64,000 nt of DNA. It comes from a bacterium (lineage in GTDB: Bacteria > Patescibacteriota > Minisyncoccia > Moranbacterales > UBA2206). Both the position numbers and the translations under genes were made by a program. The stretch is from NCBI GenBank assembly GCA_021785125.1, contig JAJYGF010000013.1, positions 41,413-105,412 on the forward strand. The letters are read 5' to 3'. Shown piece after piece: positions 1,588-23,878 of this stretch. Within the stretch, counting starts at the first letter, position 1. Each line of letters begins with the position of its first letter. The notes beneath the pieces were generated by a model. It was given only the letters and a program-made list of their open reading frames with translations, was not told the DNA's origin and did not search any database.

Positions 1588-1588
1588 G

Positions 1589-1765: not shown

Positions 1766-1800
1766 ACTCTGAAGACTTCTTTTTTTGTTCGATCTTAGTG

Positions 1801-1873: not shown

Positions 1874-1886
1874 GTGATTTATTCGG

Positions 1887-3284: not shown

Positions 3285-3375
3285 GCGTAAAGAATACCGT
3301 AAATCAGCGACGAAATCAATCTCAAAAATAAAAAACACCCCGCGACATGCCGGCAGGATGTTTCAAGCTTTTTAT

Positions 3376-7734: not shown

Positions 7735-8769
7735 TTACTGCTTAATATTAATGCCAGTATCAGCAATAGTATTCAAAATATCGTTTGAATTGATAACAAA
7801 TCCAATGAACCTTTCGAATCCTACTCCAAATCCACCACGCACTAAATCGCCCTCTTCTTTAAACAAATTAAAGTACTCTTCAAATGGCATTATTGGGTCC
7901 TGATTCTTATCAGCGATAAATTTTCCTATTTTTGAATTCAAAAGATATTTTTTGATTTTATCGCCATCTTCTTCGCGTACTGCGCCACCAACCGTTTCGC
8001 CTAGAGGAGGGAGAAGCAAATCGAAACTAAATGTTTTTTGACCATCCTTTGTGCGTTTCATATTAAAAAATTTCAGCTTTGTTGGGTGATATGTTATAAA
8101 TGTTGGCACATTATTAAATGACTGCAGAATAAATCTTTCTTCCCTAATTCCCATGTCGTCACCGAATTTATAATGATTCAGATACTTTTTATTAAGTATG
8201 TCTATGGCTTGGTCATATGTAATAATGTTGAAAGGAATATGCGTGATTTTCTGCAAATAATCAACATCTCCTCCAAGTAAACTAAGTTCCCTTCGATTTT
8301 TTAATAATAATTCATCCGTAACTGTTTTAATTATTTGTTCTGCCTGCTTTATGATATTATTCAAAACTCTTTCAGGTTTTTGATTGCCATAAGGTCGTTC
8401 CGGTTCAATAAGGGTAAACTCAGAAAGTCTTCGATTTTTTGATTCTGGATCGTCGTAATTTTCTTCTCTAAAGCTATTATTGACAGTATAAAATCCTTTT
8501 CTTAGGCGCAGGACCAGCGCCTCAAGTTGTAGTTGGGCGCTTTGTGACAAATGGGCCTCACGGCCATAATAGTTCAACTTGAACGAGGCGTGAGGATTTT
8601 CGCAAGAGCCTGCAATATTTACTAGTGATGCCGTTGCAACCTCGTTGTATCCCAGCTTGCACAGTTCCTCGCGAAACGCAAGAAGTGCATTCGTTCTTAT
8701 GGAAGTCAGGGCGGCAAATCTGTCTTTGCTGAAAGTTCCCAGCCTTGTGGTAAAATTATCCTTTTGCAT
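7735..8769 (-). CDS. AsnRS/AspRS-like class II catalytic-core paralog lacking anticodon-binding domain (AsnA-like aspartate-ammonia ligase type)
   Basis: Class II motif 2-like FREENYDD...EFTLIEPE and motif 3 GGFGVGFERFIGFV; parallels aspS in this window (FITYHPTKLKFFNMKR vs FLTHYPSAIRPFYSMP) but starts directly in the catalytic domain. Confidence 0.65.
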   Translation of the reverse strand: MQKDNFTTRLGTFSKDRFAALTSIRTNALLAFREELCKLGYNEVATASLVNIAGSCENPHASFKLNYYGREAHLSQSAQLQLEALVLRLRKGFYTVNNSFREENYDDPESKNRRLSEFTLIEPERPYGNQKPERVLNNIIKQAEQIIKTVTDELLLKNRRELSLLGGDVDYLQKITHIPFNIITYDQAIDILNKKYLNHYKFGDDMGIREERFILQSFNNVPTFITYHPTKLKFFNMKRTKDGQKTFSFDLLLPPLGETVGGAVREEDGDKIKKYLLNSKIGKFIADKNQDPIMPFEEYFNLFKEEGDLVRGGFGVGFERFIGFVINSNDILNTIADTGINIKQ

Positions 8770-8937
8770 AATGTTTAAATGAAATTATTTCTTAATAGGG
8801 TAATTATCGAGTCTTAATGTCAAATTAGTCAACACTAATTTTAATTATTTATATTAAATAAGCCAAAATATGCTAATATATAATAAATTGGCGTCAAAAA
8901 TATTGACATTTATTATTTAAAATGCTAACGTTTATCC

Positions 8938-9687
8938 ATGGATATCAAAGCGACTTTACAAAAAATAGGCTTGAGTAAAAAAGAGGCAGATATATATTTG
9001 ACCTGTCTTGAATATGGCCCCACGACCATTACAAATATTGCCAGATTGTCCGGCTATAAACGGCCGACACTTTACAATTTAATGGAAGGATTACTGCAAA
9101 AAGGATTTGTAATTATAGTTAGAAGAAATAGTAAAACATACTATGATGTCGAGAAGCCAAAGCGCTTGCTTACTGTTTTACATGCCAGGGAAAAGGAGTT
9201 AGAGCAAGCGTTGCCAGAGCTGGAAATAATTAAAAATCGCAAACAGCCGCTACCGGAAGTAGAGATATACGATGCTGATGAGGCAATAAAAAATTTATAC
9301 GATGATATTTATAACCAATTAAACAGTCGTACTGAAACTTGTTTTCTTACTTCAATTTCTGATCTAAAAACGTATGCCCCGCATATCCTAGAGTCATATA
9401 TGTCGAAAATTAAAAATAAAAATTATATTATAAGGGAATTAATCTTTGATGATGAACAGGGTTGCAAATATGCCAAGGAAATGAAGGCATTAAATATTAA
9501 ACATGAAATAAGATTATTGCCGAACGATTTTCCAATATACAATGATATTGCTTTATATAATGGGAAGGTTTCAATTTTTTCTTTTAAAATACGCAGTTCA
9601 GCAACTATGATCGATAATTTGGAAATTGCCGCAACACTTAAAAGTCTGTTTGAATGGGCTTGGGTTAATGGAAAAAACATAAAATAA
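8938..9687 (+). CDS. TrmB-family transcriptional regulator
   Basis: N-terminal wHTH LSKKEADIYLTCLEYGPTTITNIARLSGYKRPTLYNLMEGLLQKGFV typical of TrmB; divergent to AsnA-like gene. Confidence 0.65.
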   Translation: MDIKATLQKIGLSKKEADIYLTCLEYGPTTITNIARLSGYKRPTLYNLMEGLLQKGFVIIVRRNSKTYYDVEKPKRLLTVLHAREKELEQALPELEIIKNRKQPLPEVEIYDADEAIKNLYDDIYNQLNSRTETCFLTSISDLKTYAPHILESYMSKIKNKNYIIRELIFDDEQGCKYAKEMKALNIKHEIRLLPNDFPIYNDIALYNGKVSIFSFKIRSSATMIDNLEIAATLKSLFEWAWVNGKNIK

Positions 9688-9746
9688 GCATTCAGCATAA
9701 GAAGTTCTGACATCCCTTTGGGGTATAAAAAAATAAGCCTCAAAAA

Positions 9747-9782
9747 AGCCTTGTTTTAATAGTACCGCCAAGGGGATTCGAA
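9747..9782. repeat. Partial direct repeat of tRNA-Glu 3' end (21/21 nt gtaccgccaaggggattcgaa) with shared upstream extension (copy B)
   Basis: Identical to 11353..11373; preceded by agccttgttttaat also present in copy C. Confidence 0.7.
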
Positions 9783-10101
9783 ACACTAGAAACTTCGTCT
9801 CATCAAGCCTCTATTAGAAGGAAAATTGGCCCATCTAAGCCTCAAGATAAGTTTTCAAGTATCTACAGGCGAAAACAAAAAAGAACTCATTTTACCATTT
9901 TTTTAGTCACAATAGCGTCACAGTTTTTTTGCGCTAAAGAATGACGGGTAGGTTTTTAATGTCTAGCCAAAAGTCACATTGTGCCTTATTCTTTCTATAG
10001 ACCAGGATGTACTTCTTCTATTACTTTTTTGTCAAAATATCTGCAAAAACTCTATTACCGGTTGCAGAAGCATATAAGTTTAGTTATTAACGAAAATAGA
10101 T

Positions 10102-10434
10102 TTACACGTTTGCTCTGGCCGCAAAATTAAAACTATAGAAATAATTCTGCCAGGACTGATCGCCTGAGTGATATTCGTTTGAGAATATAAAATAGTCGGC
10201 TAACATCTCTCTGAGTCTTAATAATTCTCTAAGATGTTTTTTGTTTTTCTTATCGGCGATAGTTAAATCCAAAAGTTCCAAGGCGCGATCAAAAGCCATG
10301 ACGCAATATACTTGATTTCTTTTGTTCTTCCACTTGATAGCTCGCTCGACCTCGCTACCAATATTGGCCATTTGATCAAATAGTTCCATTTCATTCCAGC
10401 GACCAGAAGCTAATTGTTGATGTTGGTGATTCAT
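10102..10434 (-). CDS. Hypothetical small protein (downstream member of pair, possible toxin/HEPN-like)
   Basis: 110 aa, basic, RELLRLREML...H region; operon geometry typical of TA modules. Confidence 0.25.
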   Translation of the reverse strand: MNHQHQQLASGRWNEMELFDQMANIGSEVERAIKWKNKRNQVYCVMAFDRALELLDLTIADKKNKKHLRELLRLREMLADYFIFSNEYHSGDQSWQNYFYSFNFAARANV

Positions 10435-10772
10435 TTTTCTATCAATTTATTTACAATTTTTATAATTTCCTCTTGTATTCTTTCATCATCCACTCCTCGG
10501 CTTCGATTACCCTGAGAAGGACGAAGATTGATCATAGAATCAAATTCAATAAAATCATCACCAGCCATTTCTGGATAGATGTTTATGCCCCACAGATTCT
10601 TCTGTTGTGATCCATTTTCTATAAGCAATGCTTCTTCATCCGCATGAAGTTCGCCATCCACTGCCATAATGTCCTTTTCCACGTCAACTACCGCCTTAAC
10701 TAAATTCCCGAACATCTTTTGTGACATTTCCTTGAGTTCTCCAATTGTTATTTTGTCTTTGATTATTTTCAT
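10431..10772 (-). CDS. Hypothetical small protein (upstream member of overlapping pair, possible antitoxin-like)
   Basis: 113 aa acidic protein; 4-nt ATGA overlap with downstream 110-aa ORF. Confidence 0.3.
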   Translation of the reverse strand: MKIIKDKITIGELKEMSQKMFGNLVKAVVDVEKDIMAVDGELHADEEALLIENGSQQKNLWGINIYPEMAGDDFIEFDSMINLRPSQGNRSRGVDDERIQEEIIKIVNKLIEK

Positions 10773-10919
10773 AAGTTCTTATTTATTAATACATTCTGAT
10801 TCTATTTCATTTTGGTAGTTTTGGAAAGTTTGGCTTAAATAAAAGAAAAAGCCGAGAGAGATTTCTCAGTCGGCTTTATAGGCTTTATTGCATTGGTTAG
10901 TTTCCCTACCGGCTTTTGA

Positions 10920-11243
10920 TCTGAAATTCAATCAGGGTGCCTTCTTCTCTTTACTGTCAGTAAGGAGAAGCCCTATAAAAAAGAGCAGCTGATACCAACA
11001 AAAAGAAAACCCAGTCTCTTCGATAGGAGCCTATTAAGGGATAAACTCCCCGAGGCATTTGTATTCACGAAGATGCGTACAGGCACGCACGACGGGAATG
11101 GTTTGTTATACATTCGGGCAAGATATTATTCACCTTCAATTGGCAGGTTCATAACAAAGGATCCGTTCAAGGGCGATGACAGAAGCACTCAGGGCTTGAA
11201 CAGATATATTTATGCGCTGAATAATCCGGTCCGGTTATTGTGA
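10920..11243 (+). pseudogene. RHS/YD-repeat core C-terminal fragment (no start codon, no toxin tip)
   Basis: Open frame without ATG encodes ...GLLYIRARYYSPSIGRFITKDPFKGD...NRYIYALNNPVRLL*, the hallmark RHS-core terminal motif (YxRARYYDPxxGRFxxxDP). Confidence 0.6.
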
Positions 11244-11353
11244 CAAAGAAGTGATGAAACGGGTCTTTTCCTGCGACGAATAATAATGAGTAAGAATTGA
11301 GATATTGGCTTTAGATAAGACAGAATGCGGTCTGAAGAGTCTTATCTCGTTTG

Positions 11354-11429
11354 TACCGCCAAGGGGATTCGAACCCCTGATTTCCAGGATGAAAACCTGG
11401 CGTCCTGGACCGGGCTAGACGATGGCGGC
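11354..11429 (-). tRNA. tRNA-Glu (anticodon UUC)
   Basis: GCCGCCATCGTCTAG... anticodon stem CCAGG/CCTGG loop TTTTCAT, T-arm CAGGGGTTCGAATCCCCT; strong resemblance to bacterial tRNA-Glu; CCA not encoded. Confidence 0.8.
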
Positions 11430-11563
11430 ATGGTCTGAAACATTCAGAATAACAGTAGGAATCATAGCATAAAACAAAAATAAATCAAGATTCGGCCGGT
11501 TTCATCCATCTGAAGTATATTCCAATCCTAAGAAGATACCGAAATCATAATTGGGGTTTTCGA

Positions 11564-12811
11564 TTAATTTGTTAAACCCCGGTTAATTTTTTTGAATAAT
11601 TCGTCTTTGGCTTGCATCATCTTTTTTCCAAAATCATTATCGCTTTCCGCATAAGCGATTTTATCCAAATCTTCAAAAGTTATTCCCGCTTTCAAATATT
11701 GAGAGGCCTGATCCAGCGACTTGAATTTTTCGTATGGAGTGAGAGTGATGTTGTATTTCTTTCGTATTTTTCCTTTTGCATCAATTCTTTCTTCAGCGAA
11801 CAAGCAGGGCCGGTGATAGTTGAGGTAAACGTTTACGTACGCGCGGTTGAACTCTTCGATCAATGACGCAAACTTTTGATCGATGAAATTTCTGCCGTAC
11901 AATTTTCTCACGATGCTGCCATTCTTTGATTCCACCAGAGCATTGTCATTGGTATGCCTGGCCCGGGATTTGCTTTGTTCGATTAAAAGTTCGGTCAGAA
12001 GCTCGGCCACAATCCTGTTGAGATATTCACTGCCGTTGTCGGAATGAAATTCGTAAACCTTGAAAGGAAACAATCCTAACAATTCTTTAAGCACCGGCTT
12101 CAAAAAATGATGGCTTATGCCCTCGACTGTGGCTATCATCTCATACTGCGTAACTTCGTCAACGAGATTGATATGGTAAACACCCTTCACTTTGTCTAAA
12201 TCACCCTGATGTACGCTGTCTACGCGCAAATAGCCGGGCTTGCCGTAAGGATTGGGCTTTCTCCTGATTCCGATATTTACATTTGTAGTCGGCGTATGCT
12301 TAAAAAACAGAGCCGGAGAACTTTTGTACTGTCGATTGTGATTGCGGAGATTGTACAGATGGGAGATTGAAATCCTGGCAATATTTGCGTATTCTTTTTT
12401 GCCAAAAATTTCTGATTCGCGGCGCAGGATTTCCTTGGTGGCTTTGCCGTTCAAGCATTGGTGGGTGATATCCGTATCAATCAGCCGCTCTATGTCAGTC
12501 GCGAAATATTTTACCGGAAATTTGTTTCGTTTTCTTCCCGGATTCCAGAAAAGAAGTCCTTTGCGCCAACGGTTAACCAATTTTTTGGTGTGTCCTCGGG
12601 AATAGCCGGTTAAAAATTTCAGATACCGGATGACAATTGCTTTTTCTTTTTTTCTAAGCTTAGCATACCCGGTCTTAATCAATACGGTTTTCAAAAACTC
12701 ATATTTTTCCGGATCGCTCCCGATCTCCATTTGGATGAAGTCGTTGGACTTCAAAAACTCCTCCATCTGGCCTATACTGCCAGTAGGCAAGTTATTCATA
12801 TTGATGTTCAT
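11564..12811 (-). mobile_element. DDE transposase, integrase-core (rve) type, IS481-like
   Basis: N-terminal HTH region, then catalytic core YHINLVDEVTQY...HSDNGSEY...NALVESKNGSIVRK (D,D,E triad context). Confidence 0.75.
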
Positions 12812-12924
12812 ACCTCCAATTATGAATATGACTTGCCTTCCTACAAAGTGAGCCTTTTCGGGCTCATTTTGTGTTGGAACGGAAACTCATTTGGGTATCA
12901 TCTTGCATTGAACAAGACTAAAAG

Positions 12925-12953
12925 TTGACATTTTGTGGTAAATAATTTATTAT
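12925..12953 (+). promoter_or_regulatory. Sigma-70-like promoter (TTGACA-17-TATTAT) upstream of MAT-like operon
   Basis: Consensus -35 and near-consensus -10 with 17-nt spacer, ~38 nt upstream of start codon. Confidence 0.45.
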
Positions 12954-12990
12954 CAACTGAAACAAAAAACAGGTAAATATTAATAATCTT

Positions 12991-14286
12991 ATGGACAAGA
13001 ATATATATTTGCATGAGAATTCTTCAATAATAGCCTTAGATCCAAATGAAGCTAGTTTTGAAGTCGTAGAAAGAAAATTCCGTGGTCATCCTGACTCAAT
13101 GGCCGATATGGTGGCACAGTCATTTACACAGAAATATATCAAGAGTGCGTGGGAAAAAATACCTGAACTTTCCAATATTTATTTTCCAAATTTTTCTTCA
13201 GACAAAGTAGTTTTATCTGGTGCAAGTACAAGGTGTGTAAATGGAAAATGCGAAATTATTAAGCCGGTAGATGCTTTGCTCATAGGCAAAATAACAGAGA
13301 AAATTGGAAATATAGAAATAGATATAGATGCAATTTTTAAAGATTCCGTTGAAACTGTATTAAGCAGATGTCTAGGACACAATGATTTCAAGCCATATGT
13401 AAATAGAAAGACATATTCAATATCATTCGCAGGAGCTGACCATGATAAGGGATTTTACAATCCAAGTTCAGTAGCTGATTTGTTGAAAATACTTAAAAAT
13501 GAGACACATGCAAATGATACGGTTTATGTTGTAGCGTATTCACCATTAAGTGTATCAGAAAAGCTTGTAATCTATCTGGATAATCTTACGGCATCAAAAG
13601 AATTCAAAAAGTTATTTCCAGAGATTGGTTCGGATATTAAAGCGATGGTTCGCAGAAGATCATCGGATTTCGAAATCACAATGTGTTTACCGGTTTTTCC
13701 AGAAAAAATTCAAGATAATCAGCTATATAATCGTATCATTAAAGAAGCTACAAAATATATCCATAAAGAAATTATCCTCTTTCTTGAAAAAAACACTCGA
13801 TATTTCAAAAAACCAACAATAAAACTGTGGACTAATACTAAGGATACAAAGGATAAAAAATATTATGCAATTTGGGGTACCGCTCTTTCAAAAGGTGACG
13901 TTGGGGCGGTTGGACGTGGAAATCGGCAACAAGGATTTATAAGTGGCGTGCGGCCAAGCACGAATGAGGCTATGTCGGGAAAAAATCCAAATCATTTTGC
14001 GGGAATTGTGTATCAGCTTGTTGCAGAAAATATCTCAAAATTGATTTTTGACGAACTTGGGCAAAAAAACGCCATATACATTACTGCGAACAATGGAGAT
14101 TTTTTAGAACATCCGAATTCTATAGATGTAATCCTAGAAAAAAATAGCTTATATCAAAAAGAAGCAATTTCTAAAATCGTAAAAAAATCATTAAAGTTGA
14201 TCCCTGAGTTCCGCATGAATTTCATAAATTCTGATCCATACGAGAGATTCATGAGTTCCAATATGCTTTCACGTAAGGTTAAATGA
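12991..14286 (+). CDS. Archaeal-type S-adenosylmethionine synthetase (MAT) homolog
   Basis: VERKFRGHPDSMADMVAQ, HANDTVYVVAYSPLSVSEKLV, GDVGAVGRGNR...GVRPSTNEAMSGKNPNHFAGIVYQ all parallel archaeal MAT (MJ1208-type) motifs. Confidence 0.8.
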   Translation: MDKNIYLHENSSIIALDPNEASFEVVERKFRGHPDSMADMVAQSFTQKYIKSAWEKIPELSNIYFPNFSSDKVVLSGASTRCVNGKCEIIKPVDALLIGKITEKIGNIEIDIDAIFKDSVETVLSRCLGHNDFKPYVNRKTYSISFAGADHDKGFYNPSSVADLLKILKNETHANDTVYVVAYSPLSVSEKLVIYLDNLTASKEFKKLFPEIGSDIKAMVRRRSSDFEITMCLPVFPEKIQDNQLYNRIIKEATKYIHKEIILFLEKNTRYFKKPTIKLWTNTKDTKDKKYYAIWGTALSKGDVGAVGRGNRQQGFISGVRPSTNEAMSGKNPNHFAGIVYQLVAENISKLIFDELGQKNAIYITANNGDFLEHPNSIDVILEKNSLYQKEAISKIVKKSLKLIPEFRMNFINSDPYERFMSSNMLSRKVK

Positions 14287-14430
14287 TTCGATGAGGTTAA
14301 TAGTTATAGCGAAAAGAATCGATTAGATTTTTTTCGCTGCAACTATACTATTTTGATAGTTGGAGTTGATCATTGACAATTTAAAAATAAGACAGTAAAC
14401 AACAAACAACAAAGAAAGGAGTTGAGAGGC

Positions 14431-15900
14431 ATGGCTTACAGAGATGCAGACAAGGTGATATCTAGAATTGGTATAACACCAGTAGGAAGTGCGAAGTATC
14501 GCGTCAATAGATTGCGGTTTCATCTTTTAGCCTATGCAATAACAAGAAAGTTCCAGTTGGCTGGAAAAGAAGCCGCATTTTTTATAAGATGCGATGACAC
14601 TGACAGTAGTAATGTAAATCTTGCATTTCTAGATTCGTATCTGGAAGTGCTGTTCTCATTGGGAGTTGTGCCGAATTTAACCCCCTATGACAAAGATAGT
14701 GGGGGCTTCTCCCTTTTCCAGTCCAAAAGAGGCGATCTTTATAAGATGTTTATAGACCGTCTTTTGGAATCCGGCTTGGCATTTAAGGATTCTACCGGGG
14801 CAATCTTTTTTCACACAGAAGAGTTTTCGAGGAGATTTCAGGGTTTATTAACAGATAATAAACTTGAAGTTGAGGATGCTTCAATCGGAAGCTTCGCTGT
14901 TGATATCCGAACTCCGCTGAAAGAAAAAAGCGGTAAAATTGGGCTGATTTCATTTCCCTTAGTGCGAGCAAATGGAACATATCTCTTCAGTCTGTGTTCG
15001 CCAGTGGACGATGGGGTGATGGGAATTACACATGTTGTAAGGGACCGGGATAAACTCGATTTACTTTCGAGACAGGAAATGGTTAGGATTTCACTGGGAT
15101 TTCCGTCCATAACATATGTCCATGTTCCGTTGCTTGTTAACCAAGACGGCAAGAGATTTGTTTGTGATGAGTACTGGGGAGATGCTACATTTCAGGATTT
15201 TGTAGCCAAAGGAATATTTCCCAAGGCGTTAGTGTCGTATCTTCTTTCTGGATTCTTTGGTCCGTCAGAGAAGTATTACTCATCAATTGAAGATTTTGCT
15301 TCCCAAATAAATCTTGGGCGACTTCATCAGTCCAATACAGTCTTTGATGAGTCGGTTCTTAAGCAACACAACAAAAAAGCATTGGAAGGTTCTTCGGTGC
15401 TGGAGTACGAAACAGCACTAAAAAACTTCCTTGCTGGCGATAACCCAGTGGCCCTTGATTGTCTTAAATCAGATTCAGATATGCTGGAAATGATGATAAG
15501 AATGAAGAGGGGGCTATCAGAAACAGGCGACATTATCCATAGCTTGTCTCAATTTCTGCACGACGATCCGGACATCAAGCACATAAGAATACTAAATACG
15601 ATTATCACCTTCTTTTTACAGAAAGAGAGTGGGATGCGGGATCATTCTTGTGCAAATTTCATGCTTGAAATGGCTACGGAGCATGCGAAAAACCTTGGTA
15701 CTTCCAGAAAGGAATATTATAAGGCGTTAAGATATATTCTTACTGGCAAATACCAAGGGTGTGATTTGCATGAGGTAGTGGGGTATCTGGAAAAGAAGGG
15801 AGTTGTGATGGCGAGGATAAAAGCTACAAGAAACGAGCTGATAAAACGCAATCTCCTAATGGAATCTAGGAGTCACACTTTAAGCAGGAGGTTAGAATGA
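14431..15900 (+). CDS. Glutamyl-tRNA synthetase paralog with degenerate HIGH and KMSKS motifs
   Basis: Collinear with GluRS: RIGITPVG|SAKYR (PSPTG|xxHIG position), FFIRCDDTDSSN (RIEDTDxxR), ITHVVRDRD (THVIRGEDH), LVSYLLSGFFG (LxNYLxxLGWS); KMSKS position reads GKRFV; AAAGGAG RBS 9 nt before ATG at 14431. Confidence 0.7.
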   Translation: MAYRDADKVISRIGITPVGSAKYRVNRLRFHLLAYAITRKFQLAGKEAAFFIRCDDTDSSNVNLAFLDSYLEVLFSLGVVPNLTPYDKDSGGFSLFQSKRGDLYKMFIDRLLESGLAFKDSTGAIFFHTEEFSRRFQGLLTDNKLEVEDASIGSFAVDIRTPLKEKSGKIGLISFPLVRANGTYLFSLCSPVDDGVMGITHVVRDRDKLDLLSRQEMVRISLGFPSITYVHVPLLVNQDGKRFVCDEYWGDATFQDFVAKGIFPKALVSYLLSGFFGPSEKYYSSIEDFASQINLGRLHQSNTVFDESVLKQHNKKALEGSSVLEYETALKNFLAGDNPVALDCLKSDSDMLEMMIRMKRGLSETGDIIHSLSQFLHDDPDIKHIRILNTIITFFLQKESGMRDHSCANFMLEMATEHAKNLGTSRKEYYKALRYILTGKYQGCDLHEVVGYLEKKGVVMARIKATRNELIKRNLLMESRSHTLSRRLE

Positions 15901-16787
15901 AAACCGTGTTAAAGGTTGGTAGGTATAACGTGATGCTTGTAGTTGCAGATAGTCTCAGATATGATCTGGCTCAAAAGGCTAAGACTCCATTTCTGAACAA
16001 GCTCTCGGCACTAAGATTGGCAGAGGCACCTGCGACATACACACTGCCATCACACATGTCTTTCTTTGTTGGCATTCTCCCTGTATTGATTGATGGTAAT
16101 CCCGAATTTTTGCCGGGAATTCGTCAGCTCTGGAGGTCTGTTAATGCCAGGGAAAGCGATAAATCGTCCGCCGTTATTTTTCAGGGAGAAACAATTATCG
16201 ACTACTACGTAAGGAATCAATATGAAGTGCTTGGTGCGGGGGGCGTGTCCTTTTTCAGTGGGGCCAAAGATAATATTTTGCCCAAGCTTTTTCCAAAGTT
16301 TCTTCACTTTGAAAAGCCGGCAAACTTACCAAGGGATGCCAACGTGCCTCGCAACATGAGACAATTTCCACTGGCAAACATCGGAAGACTTATGGATAAT
16401 CTGAATTTTTCAAATCCATTTTTCCTTTTTATTAATTGTCCTGAAACACATATGCCCTATGATTCTCCCGGCGTTGAAATTACGGAGAGTTATAAAATGG
16501 CGATAAAAAAACTTTACGCCATTGACAATGTCAAACATTGTCCGGTAAGGGATCAGGATAAGTTGACGGAAGAGGAGAGGCGGATACTAATGGATGCCCA
16601 GAGACAATCGCTCGAGTGGATAGATCGGATGACTGAGGATCTGCATAGCAGAATACACAACGGACTACCTACGCTCGTGGTTGTCATGGGAGATCATGGT
16701 GATGAATTCGGAGAAGGAGGAAGGTATGGCCATGCTCATTACCATTCTTCAGTAATGCATGTCCCACTTTGGTGTGGTATGCTATGA
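15897..16787 (+). CDS. Alkaline-phosphatase superfamily enzyme, type I phosphodiesterase/nucleotide pyrophosphatase-like
   Basis: VVADSLRYD metal-site Asp, Thr nucleophile context ATYTLPSHMSFF, distal MGDHGDEFGEGGRYGHAHYH metal ligands; 4-nt overlap with upstream gene, GGAGG RBS. Confidence 0.65.
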   Translation: MKTVLKVGRYNVMLVVADSLRYDLAQKAKTPFLNKLSALRLAEAPATYTLPSHMSFFVGILPVLIDGNPEFLPGIRQLWRSVNARESDKSSAVIFQGETIIDYYVRNQYEVLGAGGVSFFSGAKDNILPKLFPKFLHFEKPANLPRDANVPRNMRQFPLANIGRLMDNLNFSNPFFLFINCPETHMPYDSPGVEITESYKMAIKKLYAIDNVKHCPVRDQDKLTEEERRILMDAQRQSLEWIDRMTEDLHSRIHNGLPTLVVVMGDHGDEFGEGGRYGHAHYHSSVMHVPLWCGML

Positions 16788-16800
16788 TAAGGAGTAAGAA

Positions 16801-17416
16801 TATGTTCAACGGAAATATGTATAAAAAGGTCATACTCAACGGTGGTTACCCGGATAGGGCCCCAGATGGCGGACTTGCTTTCTGTAGGGAAGTAACAGGT
16901 GGACTGAGTCAGCCGGTGAAAATTTTGGAATGCCTTTTTGGGCGGGAAAAGAATACTTGGGATTCAGCTCTTAAAAAAGATGTTGAGCTGTTTCACAATG
17001 TATTGGCAGGTGTTCAGGTTGAATTTCAGATAGCCAAAGAAAGAACGCTTGTTGACCAGATTGGATGGGCAGATGTAGTTTACTTTCGTGGAGGTTACAC
17101 CCAAAGACTTTATGATGTTCTTAGTGTCATTCCTCAATGGCAGGATGCGTTAAAGAATAAAGTTGTTGTCGGGTCTTCTGCCGGTGCGTATATACTTTCA
17201 GAAGTATATGTTCATGCTGCAGAAAAGCCTGAGGCAAGAAAGGGATTTGGCCTGGTCCAAATTAAAACAGTTGCCCATTATCGTTCGACATTTTTCCATA
17301 ATGGAGATCACGATAAGGCACGACAATATTGGGACATGGTTGATGAACTTCTTGAAAATTTAGGCCCTCACTTGGAAATGATGAAGCTGGGAGAGGGCGA
17401 ATTCAGAGTTCTGTAA
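16801..17416 (+). CDS. S51-family peptidase (PepE alpha-aspartyl dipeptidase / cyanophycinase-like)
   Basis: Nucleophile elbow VVVGSSAGAY (GxSAG), upstream GGYTQRL; AAGGAG RBS 6 nt before ATG at 16801. Confidence 0.6.
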
Positions 17417-17437
17417 TCCCTTTATTATCAACAATTA

Positions 17438-17477
17438 GGCGGGGTACTTCCTTGGAAGATATCCCGCTTTTATTTTG
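17438..17477. terminator. Rho-independent terminator after S51 peptidase gene
   Basis: GGCGGGG...CCCGC stem with T-run. Confidence 0.5.
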
Positions 17478-17561
17478 TAAATTAAAAAATTGTAGGTTAA
17501 AGTTTTATGTAATTTATGTCTTCAGATTTAAATCTGGAATGTAAACATACTCATTTCTTTT

Positions 17562-17648
17562 CATAAAAATAGTTCTAACATCATTTACTACCCCGTGCTT
17601 TGAAAGTTTTGTCAAAATTGAGGCTTGCAGAAGCCTCTTTTTTGGTTC
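17562..17648 (+). repeat. ~85-nt intergenic repeat element, copy 1 (ends in hairpin GAGGCTTGCAGAAGCCTC + T-run)
   Basis: Shares cataaaa(a)tagttctaac...aaggctt..agcct..ttttt with copy at 19093..19168. Confidence 0.55.
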
Positions 17649-17705
17649 TAACTTTTATAATACTTACTTTAAAAATGCCCGATCTATTGAACCATTACGT
17701 TGCTA

Positions 17706-17735
17706 TTGACAACTTATAAAAATTTATGCTATGGT
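17706..17735 (+). promoter_or_regulatory. Sigma-70-like promoter (TTGACA-18-TATGGT)
   Basis: Consensus -35, ~50 nt upstream of 17788 start with AAGGAGG RBS. Confidence 0.4.
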
Positions 17736-17787
17736 AATGGACTGATTGTGTTGTATCTGAAACAAATCAAAAACCAAGGAGGGACAT

Positions 17788-18342
17788 ATGCAAGACAAAG
17801 AAGAAAGGGTTCTTTCAAAAAAGGAAAAGCGGTTACTGGCAAACGCAAACCTGACACCTAGGGTAGAAAGGTTTGTCCGAGGGATATGGTCCAAAGAAAA
17901 GGAACCTGCTGCCAGCGGAGTGATAGGCGGAATAATAACTTCTGTCATCGCTGTAGCGTTGATACCCACATTGATTTTCATCCTGGGTGCCAACATTTTC
18001 CACTGGGCCTCAGTTCCGAAGGGCTTCGAGAACATAGCCTTTTTCGTAATATGGATACTCTTCGTGGTCGTAGCGCTGATATTTTCTATCGCGCGGTATT
18101 TCATGGTAAATGATATGGAGCCTTCCTCTATTTTGAGCTACCAGTCGATAAAAACCCTGGTGGGCGGCAACATATTCTATGCATATTACTCGAGGCTAAC
18201 GGTCTTAGTTCTCATCTGTCTGATTGCGTATAGAGGAGAGCTAATTACAGCCGCCGCCTTGCTCATAGTGTGGATAATCGGACTTGCATCAAACTCAGCG
18301 CTAAAAGGCAGGATTAAAACGGCAATAGAAGCGCTGGAATAA
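17788..18342 (+). CDS. Hypothetical polytopic membrane protein
   Basis: Strong RBS AAGGAGG; four predicted TM helices; terminator hairpin 18365..18406 downstream. Confidence 0.5.
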   Translation: MQDKEERVLSKKEKRLLANANLTPRVERFVRGIWSKEKEPAASGVIGGIITSVIAVALIPTLIFILGANIFHWASVPKGFENIAFFVIWILFVVVALIFSIARYFMVNDMEPSSILSYQSIKTLVGGNIFYAYYSRLTVLVLICLIAYRGELITAAALLIVWIIGLASNSALKGRIKTAIEALE

Positions 18343-18478
18343 CAGTTTCTGCCCATAACTAAAAAACGGGAAGCTTGGTCAACATTGCCACTTCCCGTTT
18401 TATTTTTGAAAAATAAACTCCTTCGAAGATTCGGAGCGTGTGATTAATAAATTTTAAAGAATATTGTATTATTGTCAT

Positions 18479-19078
18479 ATGAGCAAAATACATACAACCG
18501 ATAAGCTTATAATTTTTGAGGATATTAAGAGTCCGCAAGAGCTGTTGGCTTTTATGAAGAAAAATATAGCATATGGTTTTATTGGGAAAAGCAATCGAAG
18601 GGTATATTCTTCGAAGGATGATATGTATGATAATTTTAGCAATGAATATTTTTTGCAAAGTCCTGAAGAATTGATAAAAAGTGGACACGGGGTTTGTTGG
18701 GATGACGCTGAGCTAGAAAGACATTGGTTTGGAAAAAATGGTTATAATTTTAAAGTATTTTTTATAATCTTTAATAAGGAATATGAAAACAATTTGCCAA
18801 CACATTCTTTTTTGGCTTACATGGAAAGGGATAAGTGGTTTTGGTTTGAATATTCATTTAGTGTCCATAGGGGTATCCATGAGTATGATAGTTTGGAAGA
18901 TTTGATTTCGGATGTAAAGAAAAAACATTTCGATTATGCCATTAAACATCGCGAAGCAACGATTGAAGATGAGAAAGATTTGATGATTTTCGAATTTGAA
19001 AAACCAAAATATGGCTCAAGCCCACAAGGATTTGTTGATCAGGCTATGGGTGGAAAAGTAATTACTTTAGAAAATTAG
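18479..19078 (+). CDS. Hypothetical protein with candidate Cys/His catalytic pair (transglutaminase/papain-like fold?)
   Basis: GHGVCWDDAE Cys context and downstream THSFLAY His; start ambiguous between 18464 and 18479. Confidence 0.3.
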   Translation: MSKIHTTDKLIIFEDIKSPQELLAFMKKNIAYGFIGKSNRRVYSSKDDMYDNFSNEYFLQSPEELIKSGHGVCWDDAELERHWFGKNGYNFKVFFIIFNKEYENNLPTHSFLAYMERDKWFWFEYSFSVHRGIHEYDSLEDLISDVKKKHFDYAIKHREATIEDEKDLMIFEFEKPKYGSSPQGFVDQAMGGKVITLEN

Positions 19079-19092
19079 GCAGTCCTTTTTAC

Positions 19093-19168
19093 TCATAAAA
19101 TAGTTCTAACGTCCCTGACCGTGGTGTGCATTTAAATTCAAGGCTTGTTTGAGCCTTGTTTTTGTTTA
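19093..19168 (+). repeat. ~85-nt intergenic repeat element, copy 2 (ends in hairpin AAGGCTTGTTTGAGCCTT + T-run)
   Basis: Homologous to 17562..17648. Confidence 0.55.
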
Positions 19169-19296
19169 GGGTGGTGGGAAGTTAGAATTAAAATATAAAA
19201 CACTTGCTTTTTTAGTTTTTTTACACTAACCTTTTTGATATGGTAAAGGACATTCCAAACTAAATAAGAGGAGATAAAACGTGGATACGACGGATA

Positions 19297-19626
19297 ATGG
19301 TTAAAATAGACTTGCGTGGGAAGACGGCAGAAGAAGTCGCTGCTTTAGTCAAGAAACACGACTTTGGAACCGGCGAAATCGGCAAGGGAACGCATCTGTG
19401 GTTGCCGCTGTCTCTAGAATACAAAGAAGTCGTTATAGTTTGGCTTAATGACAAGGCGGCAAGTTGCTACAAAAAAGACAAGGGTGATTTGCCAGCCAAA
19501 GTCACCTACACTTTATGGAACGGAAAAGAGTCTCAGCCAAGGCAAGGGGATGACCTTCATGGTTTCATCAAGGTAGATGGCGGCATAGACTGGGGTAAGG
19601 CACATACAATGAACCTTATGCGGTAA
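19297..19626 (+). CDS. Hypothetical protein
   Basis: 109-aa ORF, higher GC than neighbours. Confidence 0.3.
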   Translation: MVKIDLRGKTAEEVAALVKKHDFGTGEIGKGTHLWLPLSLEYKEVVIVWLNDKAASCYKKDKGDLPAKVTYTLWNGKESQPRQGDDLHGFIKVDGGIDWGKAHTMNLMR

Positions 19627-19671
19627 AGTTTATAACCATAAACATTCTATTCTTCCGAAAGGAGACAGGCT

Positions 19672-20373
19672 ATGACTATTAAGAAAGATAAAGGAGGAGT
19701 TGGGGAGGCAGAAACGAAACTGCGTGTAATTGGTGCGGACGAAATGCTCTCGCTGTCTCTGCCAGCAACACTGGTTTTGACAGATAAGACGGATGAGAAA
19801 ACTCCCGCAGGATTTCAGAAAGTCCTTGTGGGCGGCGTGCTGTTTGCTCCTGGGAATATACTCGGCGACGACGATGTGGTCAGGCTGGACTGCCAGATTA
19901 TAATTGTGCCGAAAAGGAGGAGAGGAGGATATAAATACAAAGGCGCAACCCTGGAGATTATCTTGACCGATTCGGAGGCGAGTTTTGCCAAAGATGAGAA
20001 CTGGTCAAGGGAGATGCCTTTTGAAAAGACCTGTGACAAAGGTTTCGATATCGAGAAGGCCGTAGAAGTGGCTGGCAAGATGATGGATAGGTGTATGCGG
20101 GAAAGCCGTGCGAGATATAAGAGGTTATGCGACCTACTTATCCCGCTTCTCACACCCAAGACCGTCAGCAAGATTATAAAAAAGAAAAAGGAGGACTATG
20201 TTTTTTACAAACAGACACCGCCTTCGGATGACAGGCTCTTACGGGACCATCTCGAACATCTGATAAACGAGTTCGACTGCAATATCCACTACCTGGAGGA
20301 TAGCGAGATGGCCGACTTCGCCAAGACGGTTAACAAAAACCATTCGCCTGTTTTCTATGACGGGCTGGATTAA
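19672..20373 (+). CDS. Hypothetical protein
   Basis: AAAGGAGA RBS 7 nt upstream; 233 aa; followed by two hairpin terminators. Confidence 0.45.
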   Translation: MTIKKDKGGVGEAETKLRVIGADEMLSLSLPATLVLTDKTDEKTPAGFQKVLVGGVLFAPGNILGDDDVVRLDCQIIIVPKRRRGGYKYKGATLEIILTDSEASFAKDENWSREMPFEKTCDKGFDIEKAVEVAGKMMDRCMRESRARYKRLCDLLIPLLTPKTVSKIIKKKKEDYVFYKQTPPSDDRLLRDHLEHLINEFDCNIHYLEDSEMADFAKTVNKNHSPVFYDGLD

Positions 20374-20526
20374 GCTTCGGAAGGCAAAACGAAGACAGTT
20401 AGGAGGGATTTGGTTGTAGAATTATTTGCAATTTAGATCCCTCTTTTTATTTTTCTCTAAATATATAGTGAGTAACCCCCGTGAGGCCTCTTTTTTGTTC
20501 CAATTTTTTTGTGATAAAATAGACAC

Positions 20527-21237
20527 ATGAAAACAAAAAAGAGAAAAAGAAAAAATAACAGAAAGGTCATGGCGGTTATTGTCGGAATATCGGTGCTGGC
20601 GGTGATCATCGGCTGGTCGATCTGGTTCAGCTATCGAAAGCCGCAGACTGTCTGGCAAGACCTGTTGTCGCGTGTCGGATATGACAGGCCGGCCGCGGAC
20701 GCATCAAGCCAGACCGTCTTTTTGGGAGACAGCATCACGGCGCATGAGGATTGGGGCGTGCTGTTCGGAGTTACATTCATTATGAATGATGGCATTTCAG
20801 GCGATACGACGGATGATGTTTTGGCCAGATTGGATCCGGCCACGAGTGCCAAGCCCAAAAAATTATTCCTGATGATCGGTATCAATGATTTTTTGCGGGG
20901 AAAAGACGTCGCTTATGTCTGGAACAATTATCAGAAAATAATAAGCGGGATACGGTCGGAATCGCCCGATACGACCGTTTATATGCAAAGCGTTCTGCCG
21001 GTGAATAACGATATTTCAAAATTAAGATATGGGACGGTGGATCCGCAAAAGATTCTGGAGCTGAACAACAAGATTAAGTCATTGGCGGATGGCAACAAGC
21101 TTATCTTTCTTGATTTGTATCCGTCTTTCTGCGGTTCCGACAATAAATTATACCCGCAATACTCCGCGGACGGATTGCATCCCAATTCCCACGGCTATGC
21201 TCTTTGGGAAAAATTGATAGCCCCATATGTGAAATAA
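20527..21237 (+). CDS. SGNH/GDSL-family hydrolase with N-terminal signal anchor
   Basis: Blocks FLGDSIT (Ser), GINDF (Gly/Asn), DGLHPN (Asp-x-x-His). Confidence 0.75.
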   Translation: MKTKKRKRKNNRKVMAVIVGISVLAVIIGWSIWFSYRKPQTVWQDLLSRVGYDRPAADASSQTVFLGDSITAHEDWGVLFGVTFIMNDGISGDTTDDVLARLDPATSAKPKKLFLMIGINDFLRGKDVAYVWNNYQKIISGIRSESPDTTVYMQSVLPVNNDISKLRYGTVDPQKILELNNKIKSLADGNKLIFLDLYPSFCGSDNKLYPQYSADGLHPNSHGYALWEKLIAPYVK

Positions 21238-21288
21238 AGAATCAGGAAATTTTTCCTCACATTAAAAAAGACCTGGCTGTCTTTCTTT

Positions 21289-22428
21289 TCAGTTTTTGCC
21301 AAAAGCCAAATTTATCCTGTTTCGCATCGGCACTTCGAACAGATAATAAGTTAGGGAAGAGACGGAGATGACAATGGCCAGGAAGACCGAGGCGTAGATC
21401 CAAGCGGCAGTCCAGCCGAGATCGCTCATCTTTACCAGGGGATATTTTTTCAGGAAATTGAGAAGAAAGAACATGATGGGCAGGTGCATGAGATAAAGCG
21501 AGTAAGAAATGTCGCCAAGATAGACCAATGGCTTTATATTAAGAATGCGCTTGCCGAAGCCTTCGGCATAGACGCTGACCAAAATAAGGACGGCCAAAGC
21601 GATGATCGGAACAAGGTCTGGCATGGAAAAACTGGTCATAAGCAGGACAATGCCGATCACTGACAGCAGCCAGACGATATCTTTTTTCAAATAGCGCCGG
21701 CCCCAGCCGATGCGGTACAGCTCATATAACAGCATGCCGAAAAAGAAACCGAAGAAAGCGCGCACGAAACCGAAATCATAAGTGACGTCCAGGGTGTATT
21801 TTCTGGGATCGAGCGAGCCGTTGGTGGCGAGTGATAACGGATAGAGATAATAGATTACGAACAAATAGCCAGATATCACCCCGAAAAAAAGAAAGATTTT
21901 TTTCCAGTCGGTAATTTTTCGGAAAGGGATGAGGAGGAACGGAAAGACGACATACATCCACCATTCGACGCTGATCGACCAGGAGGCGCTGACCCAGGAA
22001 AGATTTTTGAACAAGCCCATGGACTGGACAAGCAGAAGCTGGGCCCAAATGGCGTGGAAATTGAAAGTGTAGAGGTAATCGCTCGGGTAAAGGGTGAAGT
22101 TGGTGCGATACCAGAAATATAGGGCAACCATGGTGAGGAGCGAAAATATGTGGAGCGGATAGATGCGGGCGAACCGCGACTGCATGAACTTTTTGAAATT
22201 CCCTCGGACATTTTCTTTAAATGATTCGGAATAGACGTGCATCATGATGAAGCCGGAAAGCAGGAAGAAGAAATCCACCCACAAGTAGCCTCTTTGGATG
22301 AAGCGGTCGAAAGAGCCGTCCCAAGGCGCCAGCGCAAAGCAGAAAACATTGAAATGGAGAAGGATGACCAAAAGCGCGGCAATGCCGCGAAGAGAGGTGA
22401 GTGAAGAGAGATAGTTTGCTTTTTTCAT
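21289..22428 (-). CDS. Acyltransferase family 3 (OafA-like) membrane O-acyltransferase
   Basis: LRGIAALLVILLH N-terminal signature, ~10 TM helices. Confidence 0.75.
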   Translation of the reverse strand: MKKANYLSSLTSLRGIAALLVILLHFNVFCFALAPWDGSFDRFIQRGYLWVDFFFLLSGFIMMHVYSESFKENVRGNFKKFMQSRFARIYPLHIFSLLTMVALYFWYRTNFTLYPSDYLYTFNFHAIWAQLLLVQSMGLFKNLSWVSASWSISVEWWMYVVFPFLLIPFRKITDWKKIFLFFGVISGYLFVIYYLYPLSLATNGSLDPRKYTLDVTYDFGFVRAFFGFFFGMLLYELYRIGWGRRYLKKDIVWLLSVIGIVLLMTSFSMPDLVPIIALAVLILVSVYAEGFGKRILNIKPLVYLGDISYSLYLMHLPIMFFLLNFLKKYPLVKMSDLGWTAAWIYASVFLAIVISVSSLTYYLFEVPMRNRINLAFGKN

Positions 22429-22704
22429 ATCCAGTTTATGTTTAAAATCCTGTTTGCTATTATATAATCCTGGGTCCGAAGAGTAAAGCTTGCCGCAAAA
22501 AGCGCTTCTGTTTTTTTTAAAGGCTTCGGCTATGGTAAAATGAATATAAACCAGAATAAAATTTTCAAGATGAAAAAAATATTAGCCATCGAGATGCAAG
22601 CCTAATGGGGCAGGATTGCTTTTTTGCCAAAGTGTGCTATAGTGAAAAGCTGGTTGAAAAAAGAACGTTTTTTAAAAATCACCAAAACTGCTTAAGGAGG
22701 CAAC

Positions 22705-23052
22705 TTGATAAACCTCAGGCTTTTGGCGCGAATGATCAAGCAAGGTTCGGAAGCGGAGATACACAGCTTTATCCAATATACGCTGAAAAGATGCATTAGG
22801 ATCAAACTTCGCTATCATCTGAAATGCAACGCGAAGCTGGGAATCTCCGCCTTTACTGAGGAAGTGAAAGATCTTCTTGACGTGTTTGAGGAAATAGTCA
22901 GGTGGAGCGGGGAGGAGGATGAACTTATTAAGATACATGCCATATCTCTTATCGAAGAATATGGCATAAAAGTGCCAGGTGAGGCTTTTGAGGGAGCGGT
23001 GGAAAAAATTATCAAAGAGGTATGCAAAGCAAGGAGAAGAAAGGGCCGGTGA
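22705..23052 (+). CDS. Hypothetical protein (TTG start)
   Basis: AAGGAGG RBS 5 nt upstream of TTG; 115 aa. Confidence 0.4.
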   Translation: MINLRLLARMIKQGSEAEIHSFIQYTLKRCIRIKLRYHLKCNAKLGISAFTEEVKDLLDVFEEIVRWSGEEDELIKIHAISLIEEYGIKVPGEAFEGAVEKIIKEVCKARRRKGR

Positions 23053-23412
23053 AAAGTTTTCACGGCCCTTTAAATTTGCCTATTTTGCTTGTGTATATTT
23101 CTAACCGATGCAGTTCCAGATGAGCGACATCATGCTCCTGAACATTTCGACGATGGCCGGCTGTTCGATCAGCTATAACGGTTCGACAGGAGCCTCCGCT
23201 TTCAAGACGCTCGGCAAGGAATACGCCATGTTGTACGCGAGACGAAACCTTTCCTCGGAGCTGTCGATATCGTGTCGGCCCAGGTGTTCTATACCTGGAA
23301 ATAGCTAGAAGTCTTTTAAAAGGCCCTCGCAGGCAACAGTTTTGCGGGGCTTGATTTTTTCATAAAGCTATTTATAATGTAAAATTAAGGATAAATAAAT
23401 TGTATAAAATAT

Positions 23413-23826: not shown

Positions 23827-23842
23827 TCTGTGCTAATTATAA

Positions 23843-23878
23843 AGGGGCGTCTACTGTAGACGCCCCTTCTTTTTCTCT
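23843..23878. terminator. Bidirectional terminator AGGGGCGTCTAC-TG-TAGACGCCCCT + T-run
   Basis: Perfect 11-bp inverted repeat between convergent genes; arms resemble the REP element arms. Confidence 0.6.

Follow-up and report, generated by a model that had tools for sequence, protein, structure and literature searches.

The 64,000-nucleotide stretch analyzed here (the window; positions 41,413 to 105,412 of contig JAJYGF010000013.1, assembly GCA_021785125.1, order Moranbacterales) contains a 4.4-kb module of four co-directional genes, which encode in order a methionine adenosyltransferase (MAT)-like protein, a glutamyl-tRNA synthetase (GluRS)-like protein, an alkaline phosphatase (AP)-superfamily protein, and a Peptidase_S51-like protein. 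Our subject is the second gene (gene 2, positions 14431 to 15900, plus strand), whose 489-residue product is a full-length paralog of bacterial-type GluRS that lacks both class I signature motifs, HIGH and KMSKS. Very probably, the synthetase has been repurposed in candidate-phyla-radiation bacteria for a function not yet described, and its operon with an archaeal-type MAT-like enzyme is the most informative new result on the gene. The reading frame starts with the ATG at 14431, about 11 nucleotides downstream of an AGGAG ribosome-binding site; an alternative TTG at 14422 falls within this ribosome-binding region. The stop codon (15898 to 15900) overlaps the ATG of gene 3 as ATGA. Annotation pipelines name the product "glutamate--tRNA ligase family protein."

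The relationship to GluRS extends over the whole protein. It matched the class I Glu/Gln synthetase catalytic domain (PF00749) with 55.8 bits and the bacterial GluRS model TIGR00464 (gltX_bact) with 131.5 bits over its entire length, the latter being below the cut-off of 289.95. When a 31-member family alignment was compared by hhalign with 13 canonical GluRS sequences, residues 8 to 476 aligned collinearly with positions 1 to 480 (Prob 100, E = 1.6e-45), which bears out the collinearity that the initial annotation had read by eye. The AlphaFold2 model built from the 31-sequence alignment is confident (pLDDT 91.3, pTM 0.86), and a Foldseek search of the PDB with it ranked more than 40 bacterial GluRS chains first, with template modeling (TM) scores of 0.65 to 0.73; 8jpv reached 0.73 at about 20% identity. 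According to this model, the protein has the complete five-domain bacterial-type GluRS fold, helical anticodon-binding domain included, and in this it resembles canonical GltX (TIGR00464; T. thermophilus 1J09, 8JPV).

The two catalytic motifs are gone from this otherwise familiar scaffold. By profile alignment, the HIGH-equivalent segment is S20-A-K-Y-R24-V-N-R27 (positions 14488 to 14511, plus strand), which lies within the longer family motif PVGSxKYRxNRLRFHLLAY. The HIGH tetrapeptide itself aligns to R24-V25-N26-R27, following a 2-residue insertion (S20-A21), so that its His has become Arg, while its Gly/Thr positions have become Asn and Arg. The KMSKS-equivalent loop is G240-K-R-F-V-C-D-E-Y248 (positions 15148 to 15174, plus strand), in which there is no second Lys, and KLSKR aligns to R242-F243-V244-(C245-D246)-E247-Y248. 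The initial annotation had placed SAKYR (residues 20 to 24, positions 14488 to 14502) and GKRFV (residues 240 to 244, positions 15148 to 15162) at the two motif positions; the replacement holds, with these strings offset by a few residues from the profile-aligned equivalents. Canonical motifs elsewhere in the sequence, the outcome set beforehand as counting against the annotation, were found neither by profile alignment nor by pattern matching. Among the 31 tight and 39 extended family members, a regular-expression scan of the first 80 residues detected no H.G. motif, and K.SK. occurred at no sensible position in any of them, whereas canonical GluRS from the same search carry HIGG or HVGG and KLSKR. 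The replacements are themselves conserved family-wide, and the motif loss is therefore not a chance event: R24 and the family-specific H31 are each present in 31 of 31 tight-family members, and at the position of the HIGH His the distant members have K or R in 13 of 26, within a segment of the form K/R-I-G-x. The RFV(CD)EY segment is looser, varying within the tight family, and the loop is deleted in distant members.

By contrast with the motifs, the pocket around them was largely retained. We mapped 57 full-length members (31 tight and 26 extended) to T. thermophilus GluRS numbering, using a sequence of that enzyme that reproduces all published residue numbers; the residue roles given here, which we take to carry over, come from T. 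thermophilus GluRS structures. At about 25 to 30% overall identity, R12 (R5 in T. thermophilus), D55 (E41), D56 (D42), T57 (T43), Q97 (Q82), S98, R100 (R85), Y104, D193 and D194 (the VDD motif), R204 (R205), K208, and H231 (H232) are invariant or nearly so, and P233 (P234) is conserved too. T57 is kept in 28 of the 31 tight members and in 20 of the 26 extended ones, and the A76 contacts T57 and D58(N) are retained. Little has changed in the adenine-pocket backbone segment H231-x-P-L-L or at the ribose-binding acid D207, and the anticodon contact R434 (R435) in an RYxLTG motif is kept. There are also systematic changes, namely E41 to D (57 of 57), N191 to S, H/W209 to K, and Y187 to F/Y, together with a family-specific Q-E-M-x-R segment at 215 to 219. 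Within the glutamate-recognition set (R5, E41, Y187, N191, R205, and W/H209), R5 and R205 are kept, E41, N191, and W/H209 are substituted, and Y187 is F or Y. The earlier claim that substrate and tRNA-acceptor regions are preserved was thus right for the equivalents of R5, D42, T43, R205, H232, and P234; it failed for E41, N191, H/W209, and Y187, which changed, and for R47, R147, and the Zn-binding insertion, which are lost. Pairwise identity by domain (0.59 and 0.60 for the two Rossmann halves, 0.22 to 0.30 for the anticodon-binding domain) follows the same profile as in true GluRS. Judged from this conservation, the former active-site cleft is still the functional center of a selected protein.

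The family is small, well bounded, and under selection. A search of 5.8 billion proteins returned a tight family of 31 sequences (P0001 to P0031; E values of 0 to 1e-43), followed by a gap to ordinary GluRS at 1e-17. A profile search of 1.84 billion cluster representatives added about 39 further clusters (P0113 to P0151; 1e-114 to 1e-49), all without both motifs, and motif-bearing GluRS start at about 1e-46 in that search. Altogether, the family comprises about 50 clusters at 50% identity, all of which lack HIGH and KMSKS and keep the glutamate/A76 pocket. Against an 85%-identical relative (locus L022), gene 2 has a ratio of nonsynonymous to synonymous substitution rates (dN/dS) of 0.149, by which measure it is under purifying selection. 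All homologs come from uncultured organisms, and the loci are mostly labeled Patescibacteria. The cassette is rare, having been found in 5 of 185,579 species genomes, all of them metagenome-assembled and labeled as one Saccharibacteria, one Patescibacteria, two "bacterium," and one "Deltaproteobacteria." The genome and metagenome pattern scans, which found 5 and 2 loci, respectively, needed two exact peptide patterns, so locus counts resting on them are lower bounds. A tBLASTn search of PLSDB plasmids and INPHARED phages returned ordinary gltX only, at 21 to 25% identity, and an origin from mobile elements was rejected on this result. Full-text literature searches found no description of the GluRS-like family or of the cassette; a survey of aminoacyl-tRNA synthetase paralogs mentions only that GluRS often has paralogs (PMC5388404).

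The four-gene module recurs in 14 independent loci, at GluRS-like protein identities down to 28%. Of the 13 loci in which adjacency could be assessed, 12 have the MAT-like gene next to the GluRS-like gene. An S51-like gene occurs in 13 of the 14 loci and an AP-like gene in 11, and 13 have either an AP-like or a HAD phosphatase. The stop of the MAT-like gene overlaps the start of the GluRS-like gene in L007, L008, L018, and L019. Two loci depart from the arrangement: in L009 the GluRS-like gene comes last, with two genes between it and the MAT-like gene, and in L010 there is no MAT-like gene directly upstream. The flanks vary from locus to locus, which makes the cassette itself the unit.

Several signals in the window fit a single transcription unit. 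A promoter-like site, TTGACA-17-TATTAT (positions 12925 to 12953, plus strand; 11 of 12 matches in a consensus scan), lies 38 nucleotides upstream of the MAT-like start and, judged by its sequence and position, is probably the operon promoter, in a region where the total count of such sites is not above shuffled expectation. About 200 nucleotides past gene 4, a terminator-like hairpin (GAGGCTTGCAGAAGCCTC followed by a T run; positions 17620 to 17647, plus strand) probably ends the operon. Between the MAT-like and GluRS-like genes, the spacer holds a hairpin (positions 14300 to 14346, plus strand; dG -24.4 kcal/mol, z -6.3), which is also found in L022 (about 1529 to 1575, z -7.0) and L004 (about 9871 to 9909, z -3.9), where the proteins are only 50 to 70% identical; a 30-nucleotide block is conserved, and the changes preserve pairing. 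Loci without the spacer have overlapping MAT-like and GluRS-like genes instead. The hairpin is possibly an intercistronic stabilizer or attenuator. Searching Rfam at the gathering threshold and at E ≤ 1 recovered the tRNA only; neither a T-box nor a riboswitch was found ahead of the genes or in the spaces between them.

Gene 1 (positions 12991 to 14286, plus strand; 431 residues) encodes an archaeal-type MAT-like protein (PF01941, 205.6 bits). It shares with that enzyme class a full-length alignment and the motifs GHPDS, ANDT, GDxGxVGRGNR, and SGKNP, at about 30% identity to the M. jannaschii MAT (7p82). It differs in scoring 252 bits against the best NCBIfam equivalog, about half of the cut-off of 481, and in forming a small, cassette-tied clade. 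This clade of about 50 sequences is as small as the GluRS-like family and sits on the same contigs, and on this sequence evidence the gene belongs to a cassette-specific clade; a housekeeping MAT is unlikely. Its dN/dS is 0.094. Related archaeal-type copies, not housekeeping MATs, occur in Bacillus secondary-metabolite clusters (L017, B. thuringiensis VDNA01000018, 10001 to 11290; L021, pCT127, 8974 to 10215). One of them (44% identical) lies within a PEP-mutase (phosphonate) cluster and the other (29% identical) in the thuringiensin (thu) cluster, beside a glycosyltransferase. In thuringiensin, adenosine is linked via its 5' carbon to glucose; the 5'-adenosyl-glucose step has reportedly been given to a "polymerisation protein," and the MAT-like gene of the thu cluster may encode the real adenosyl transferase.

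Gene 3 (positions 15897 to 16787, plus strand) encodes a soluble AP-superfamily protein of 296 residues, "sulfatase-like" and distantly of the STM4013 type (PF00884, 30.8 bits; NF038075, 111 bits against a cut-off of 250), with a dN/dS of 0.085. Its invariant residues (D18, T49, H53, H185, D266, H267, and H279) would form a metal site and a Thr nucleophile, with Thr49 at the position of the sulfatase formylglycine-Cys. The AlphaFold2 model (pLDDT 95.8) has phosphoethanolamine/phosphoglycerol transferases and sulfatases as its nearest folds, a generic likeness only, at TM scores of 0.5 to 0.6; the closest homolog from a cultured organism is that of Allokutzneria (P0281). In a subclade comprising L006 and L011, two other genes stand in place of the AP-like gene (L006, 3428 to 4598; L011, 7494 to 8756): one for a HAD_2 phosphatase, whose matches include the pyrophosphatase PpaX and phosphoglycolate phosphatase, and one for a 190-residue P-loop kinase, whose best match is a weak one to L-seryl-tRNA(Sec) kinase (PSTK; 27.6 bits). 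This swap for an unrelated phosphatase implies a simple phosphatase step or substrate. Gene 4 (positions 16802 to 17416, plus strand; 204 residues) encodes a Peptidase_S51-like serine hydrolase (PF03575, 34.2 bits; dN/dS 0.21) that aligns to the cyanophycinase-like exopeptidase 6nqc. Its ATG at 16802 follows the ribosome-binding site AAGGAG, and another possible start, the ATG at 16784, overlaps the stop of gene 3 as ATGA. In 12 loci, there is no variation at the Ser of GxSAGA, the His of H(Y/F)xS, or a C-terminal Glu. S51 relatives cleave N-terminal Asp dipeptides and beta-Asp-Arg. As far as their sequences tell, all three partners of the GluRS-like protein have intact catalytic residues.

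Genes encoding nucleotide-directed hydrolases recur in the vicinity of the cassette in other loci, namely PHP (3',5'-nucleoside bisphosphate phosphatase/RNase AM-like), NUDIX (NudE-like), and HIT proteins. They lie at 13153 to 14870 in L004, 3140 to 4069 in L020, 9467 to 10033 in L011, 4249 to 4623 in L015, 14270 to 14695 in L018, and 3227 to 3853 and 8405 to 8884 in L019; NUDIX genes are those of L011, L015, L018, and L019, and HIT occurs in L019. L004 also has a small Ser/Thr-kinase-like gene. These accessory genes (P-loop kinase, NUDIX, HIT, PHP, and Ser/Thr kinase) were left outside our core model because they are not orthologous across loci. A search of PADLOC-DB with the four cassette proteins and four downstream neighbors gave no meaningful match, and an antiphage defense system was rejected for that reason.

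Upstream of the cassette lies an IS481/IS3-like transposase gene with an rve domain (positions 11564 to 12811, minus strand), at which contigs from other samples end. Once this insertion sequence (IS) element is discounted, the nearest upstream neighbor is a tRNA-Glu(UUC) gene (positions 11353 to 11429, minus strand). In L004 (8346 to 8420) and L007 (6383 to 6457), whose flanks are otherwise unrelated, a tRNA-Asp(GUC) gene precedes the MAT-like gene by 160 to 320 nucleotides in the same orientation, and in L019 a tRNA-Gln(UUG) gene (3253 to 3324) abuts the cassette. A Glu/Asp/Gln-group tRNA thus borders the cassette in 4 of 14 loci, above the expectation from a rough chance estimate of about 1 to 2% per locus.

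The cassette is part of a low-GC block. Between 8 and 24 kb of the window the GC content is 0.34 to 0.41, compared with 0.46 to 0.50 in the flanks, and this block (about 8000 to 24000), which looks like an acquired island, holds an AsnRS-like paralog, a TrmB-like regulator, the tRNA-Glu, the IS transposase, the cassette, and open reading frames without a family match (17788 to 18342, 18464 to 19078, and 19672 to 20373). The AsnRS-like gene (7735 to 8769, minus strand; 344 residues), about 6 kb from the cassette and at the lowest GC of the window (0.34), is a second synthetase paralog, a class II core without the anticodon-binding OB fold; it scores 165 bits against the asparagine-tRNA ligase cut-off of 414 and 67 bits against archaeal-type asparagine synthetase A. 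A full-length AsnRS/AspRS is encoded at 35974 to 37293. About 6 kb downstream of the MAT-like gene there is a small S-adenosylmethionine decarboxylase gene (PF02675; 23419 to 23826, plus strand); none was seen close to the cassettes of other loci. Four tRNA genes (Arg-TCT, His-GTG, Lys-CTT, and Arg-TCG) lie at the left end of the window (1588 to 1959, minus strand). The rest of the window resembles a small-genome bacterial chromosome, with TsaD, a sigma factor, two class II synthetases, enolase, iPGM, RecJ, and MraY. No canonical gltX is present within the 64 kb. In L020, on the other hand, a gltX with an N-terminal extension of about 95 residues (10351 to 12096, minus strand; 512 bits against the cut-off of 290) adjoins a distant version of the cassette with a P-loop protein on its upstream side; an S51 family was not found in the gene calls within 8 kb. 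Therefore, in at least one genome the GluRS-like gene coexists with a true gltX. From canonical GluRS, its product differs in lacking the two motifs, R47, R147, and some 25 to 30 residues of the Zn-binding insertion and in being encoded in a MAT-like operon.

That the protein is a repurposed synthetase without canonical adenylation, as first proposed for it, is supported by the absence of the motifs from about 50 clusters, the deletion of the loop in distant members, the low dN/dS, and the gltX beside the L020 cassette. The accompanying suggestion of a GluQRS- or YadB-like logic, however, did not survive. GluQRS consists of a catalytic domain of about 300 residues without an anticodon-binding domain, keeps HIGH and uses ATP to activate glutamate, and no longer has the Thr of EDTD (PMC3542578). 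As the tRNA-Asp glutamyl-queuosine synthetase, it is likewise a GluRS paralog with a nontranslational role and a conserved glutamate pocket, and the tRNA-Asp directly upstream of the cassette in two loci is intriguing in this light. But GluQRS retains HIGH and KLSKQ-type motifs and adenylates glutamate without tRNA, while our protein lacks HIGH and KMSKS and keeps the anticodon-binding domain and the Thr. It reached 64.2 bits on the GluQRS model TIGR03838 (cut-off 276.7) and 35 to 69 bits on other GluQRS models (cut-offs 250 to 453), and Foldseek found GluQRS (4a91) as a partial match only, with a TM score of 0.43 normalized by query length. Its scores, its length, its motif pattern, and the Thr that it keeps all led us to reject membership in GluQRS.

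The explanation we put forward, tentatively, is that the GluRS-like protein is a nonadenylating GluRS derivative that catalyzes an ATP-independent step on a preactivated or adenosyl-linked substrate together with its MAT-like partner. On this view, it still uses its old cleft and probably its anticodon-binding domain. In this scheme, the MAT-like enzyme would convert ATP to S-adenosylmethionine (SAM) or another 5'-adenosyl compound, and the phosphatase would clear the released tri- or pyrophosphate (PPPi/PPi). The GluRS-like protein would hold a glutamate-like acid in its pocket (R12, D55, S190, R204, and K208) along with a terminal adenosine, either A76 of an already charged Glu-family tRNA, bound in a product-like mode, or the adenosyl product of the partner in the former AMP site. 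It would then transfer from the preactivated donor without ATP, by analogy with cyclodipeptide synthases (CDPSs) and their aminoacyl-tRNA, and the S51 peptidase would cleave the acidic-aminoacyl linkage so formed, for maturation, recycling, or self-protection. CDPSs (class Ic) are comparable in having a class I Rossmann cleft without HIGH or KMSKS, which in their case binds activated aminoacyl-tRNA; they differ in their TyrRS/TrpRS derivation, their length of about 230 to 300 residues, their lack of an anticodon-binding domain, and their catalytic Ser. The use of aminoacyl-tRNA by the GluRS-like protein is a hypothesis, at which the retained A76 contacts T57 and D58(N), the R434 anticodon contact, and the tRNA-Asp, tRNA-Glu, and tRNA-Gln neighbors in 4 of 14 loci hint only indirectly.

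Several observations weigh against this explanation. What we describe is the anatomy of the cassette, from which we infer its substrates, its tRNA binding, and its transfer chemistry, and the role given to the phosphatase is a guess. Loss of the acceptor-arm contacts R47 and R147 and of about 25 to 30 residues of the Zn-binding insertion weakens canonical tRNA docking, and the equivalent of R358, which reads C36, cannot be aligned. The tRNA neighbors could mark a functional partner, but they could also reflect an integration hotspot. The MAT-like protein keeps all canonical MAT motifs and may simply supply ordinary SAM. Finally, class I synthetases can tolerate one atypical motif (TrpRS carries TIGN, and KMSKS is missing from many ArgRS), and by this analogy the Arg/Lys-rich replacement motif could still handle a nucleotide.

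A noncatalytic role would account for part of the evidence differently. HisZ is a synthetase paralog that acts in histidine biosynthesis (PMC3542578), and on this precedent the GluRS-like protein might be a regulator or sensor subunit of the MAT-like enzyme, its glutamate and/or uncharged-tRNA site exerting allosteric control. It resembles HisZ (the HisRS paralog that serves as the ATP-phosphoribosyltransferase regulatory subunit) and the HisRS-like domain of GCN2 in having lost aminoacylation, in having a partner enzyme, and, as far as its conserved residues suggest, in keeping amino-acid or tRNA binding; the HisZ pattern of lost aminoacylation motifs and a kept ligand pocket is what we found. 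The likeness is not one of descent, as HisZ and GCN2 derive from the class II HisRS and are not homologous to it, and HisZ has no anticodon-binding domain and a proven complex. Tight adjacency of the MAT-like and GluRS-like genes, with common stop/start overlaps, is typical of complexes, and the conserved intercistronic hairpin could set subunit stoichiometry. On the other hand, there is no obvious logic by which glutamate or tRNA-Glu should govern a MAT, the equally conserved S51 peptidase and phosphatase are left unexplained, and the two genes are separated by two others in L009, while L010 has no MAT-like gene directly upstream. We regard a regulatory subunit as unlikely, though worth serious consideration.

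The hydrolases invite another explanation, in which the GluRS-like protein is a binder or decoy for a glutamyl-adenylate-like or adenosyl-amino-acid compound, and the cassette makes or detoxifies an aminoacyl-nucleoside antimetabolite, which the GluRS-like protein would sequester or present and the S51 enzyme would cleave. Such a role would suit a protein whose Glu-AMP pocket is conserved while its catalytic residues are not, the Ser-His-Glu hydrolase in 13 of 14 loci, the nucleotide-X hydrolases (NUDIX and HIT) among the variable neighbors, and the archaeal-type MAT homologs in B. thuringiensis nucleoside and phosphonate biosynthetic clusters. The patchy distribution of the cassette and its low-GC, IS-flanked region point the same way. 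However, stoichiometric sequestration is a costly form of immunity, and the core cassette has no transporter, peptide precursor, or recognizable toxin-synthesis gene. Retention of the anticodon-binding domain would go unexplained, and the NUDIX and HIT neighbors are nonorthologous and common in these genomes. Taken together, we consider a binder or decoy improbable.

We think it quite improbable, too, that the protein is still an ATP-dependent ligase, with KYRxNRLR (K/R-I-G-x in distant members) standing in for HIGH and KMSKS and with glutamate or an analog being joined to tRNA or another acceptor. There is a partial precedent, since in ArgRS without KMSKS a Lys upstream of HIGH substitutes for it, and a basic residue here stands where the HIGH His was (R in 31 of 31 tight members, K or R in 13 of 26 distant ones), with H231-x-P-L-L and D207 largely kept. 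Activation of the GluRS type is moreover tRNA dependent, with chemistry that is partly substrate assisted. But both motifs have been lost together, in the tight family Asn and Arg have taken the place of the essential small residues of HIGH (Gly), and distant members conserve the rest of the pocket although their KMSKS loop is deleted; the score is far under the gltX cut-off, and the L020 cassette has a true gltX beside it. That gene 2 is a decaying, functionless gltX duplicate, as the loss of both motifs and the subthreshold family score might suggest, is effectively refuted by its dN/dS of 0.15 and the family conservation (about 50 clusters at 50% identity with family-specific invariant residues), besides its intact 489-codon reading frame, its confident AlphaFold2 model, and an operon partnership conserved down to 28% protein identity.

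Synthetase paralogs with new biochemistry include GluQRS, PoxA, HisZ, MshC, and the CDPSs. The present family is distinctive among them in being full length, in keeping the anticodon-binding domain while losing both ATP motifs, and in being tied, within a module of four genes, to a SAM-synthetase-like enzyme of archaeal type. It is also restricted to bacteria that are uncultured and belong mostly to the candidate phyla radiation, a group of poorly understood metabolism. When reduced genomes are reconstructed, the GluRS-like gene could be miscounted as a gltX copy. A regulatory protein would make a class I counterpart of HisZ; if the protein is catalytic, as the nonadenylating explanation holds, it would perform a new ATP-independent reaction on a class I scaffold, possibly leading to a new adenosyl- or tRNA-linked metabolite. 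It is possible, although we hold it with some doubt, that the family is a new enzyme family derived from subclass Ib GluRS that has abandoned ATP chemistry and that forms, with the adenosyltransferase, the phosphatase, and the S51 hydrolase, a new tRNA- or adenosyl-linked pathway of Patescibacteria. Such a pathway might, for example, transfer glutamyl from Glu-tRNA to an adenosyl acceptor or carry out a SAM-dependent modification of Glu/Asp/Gln-family tRNAs, and, if it exists, it would be the first CDPS-like reuse of a full-length synthetase that retains its anticodon-binding domain.

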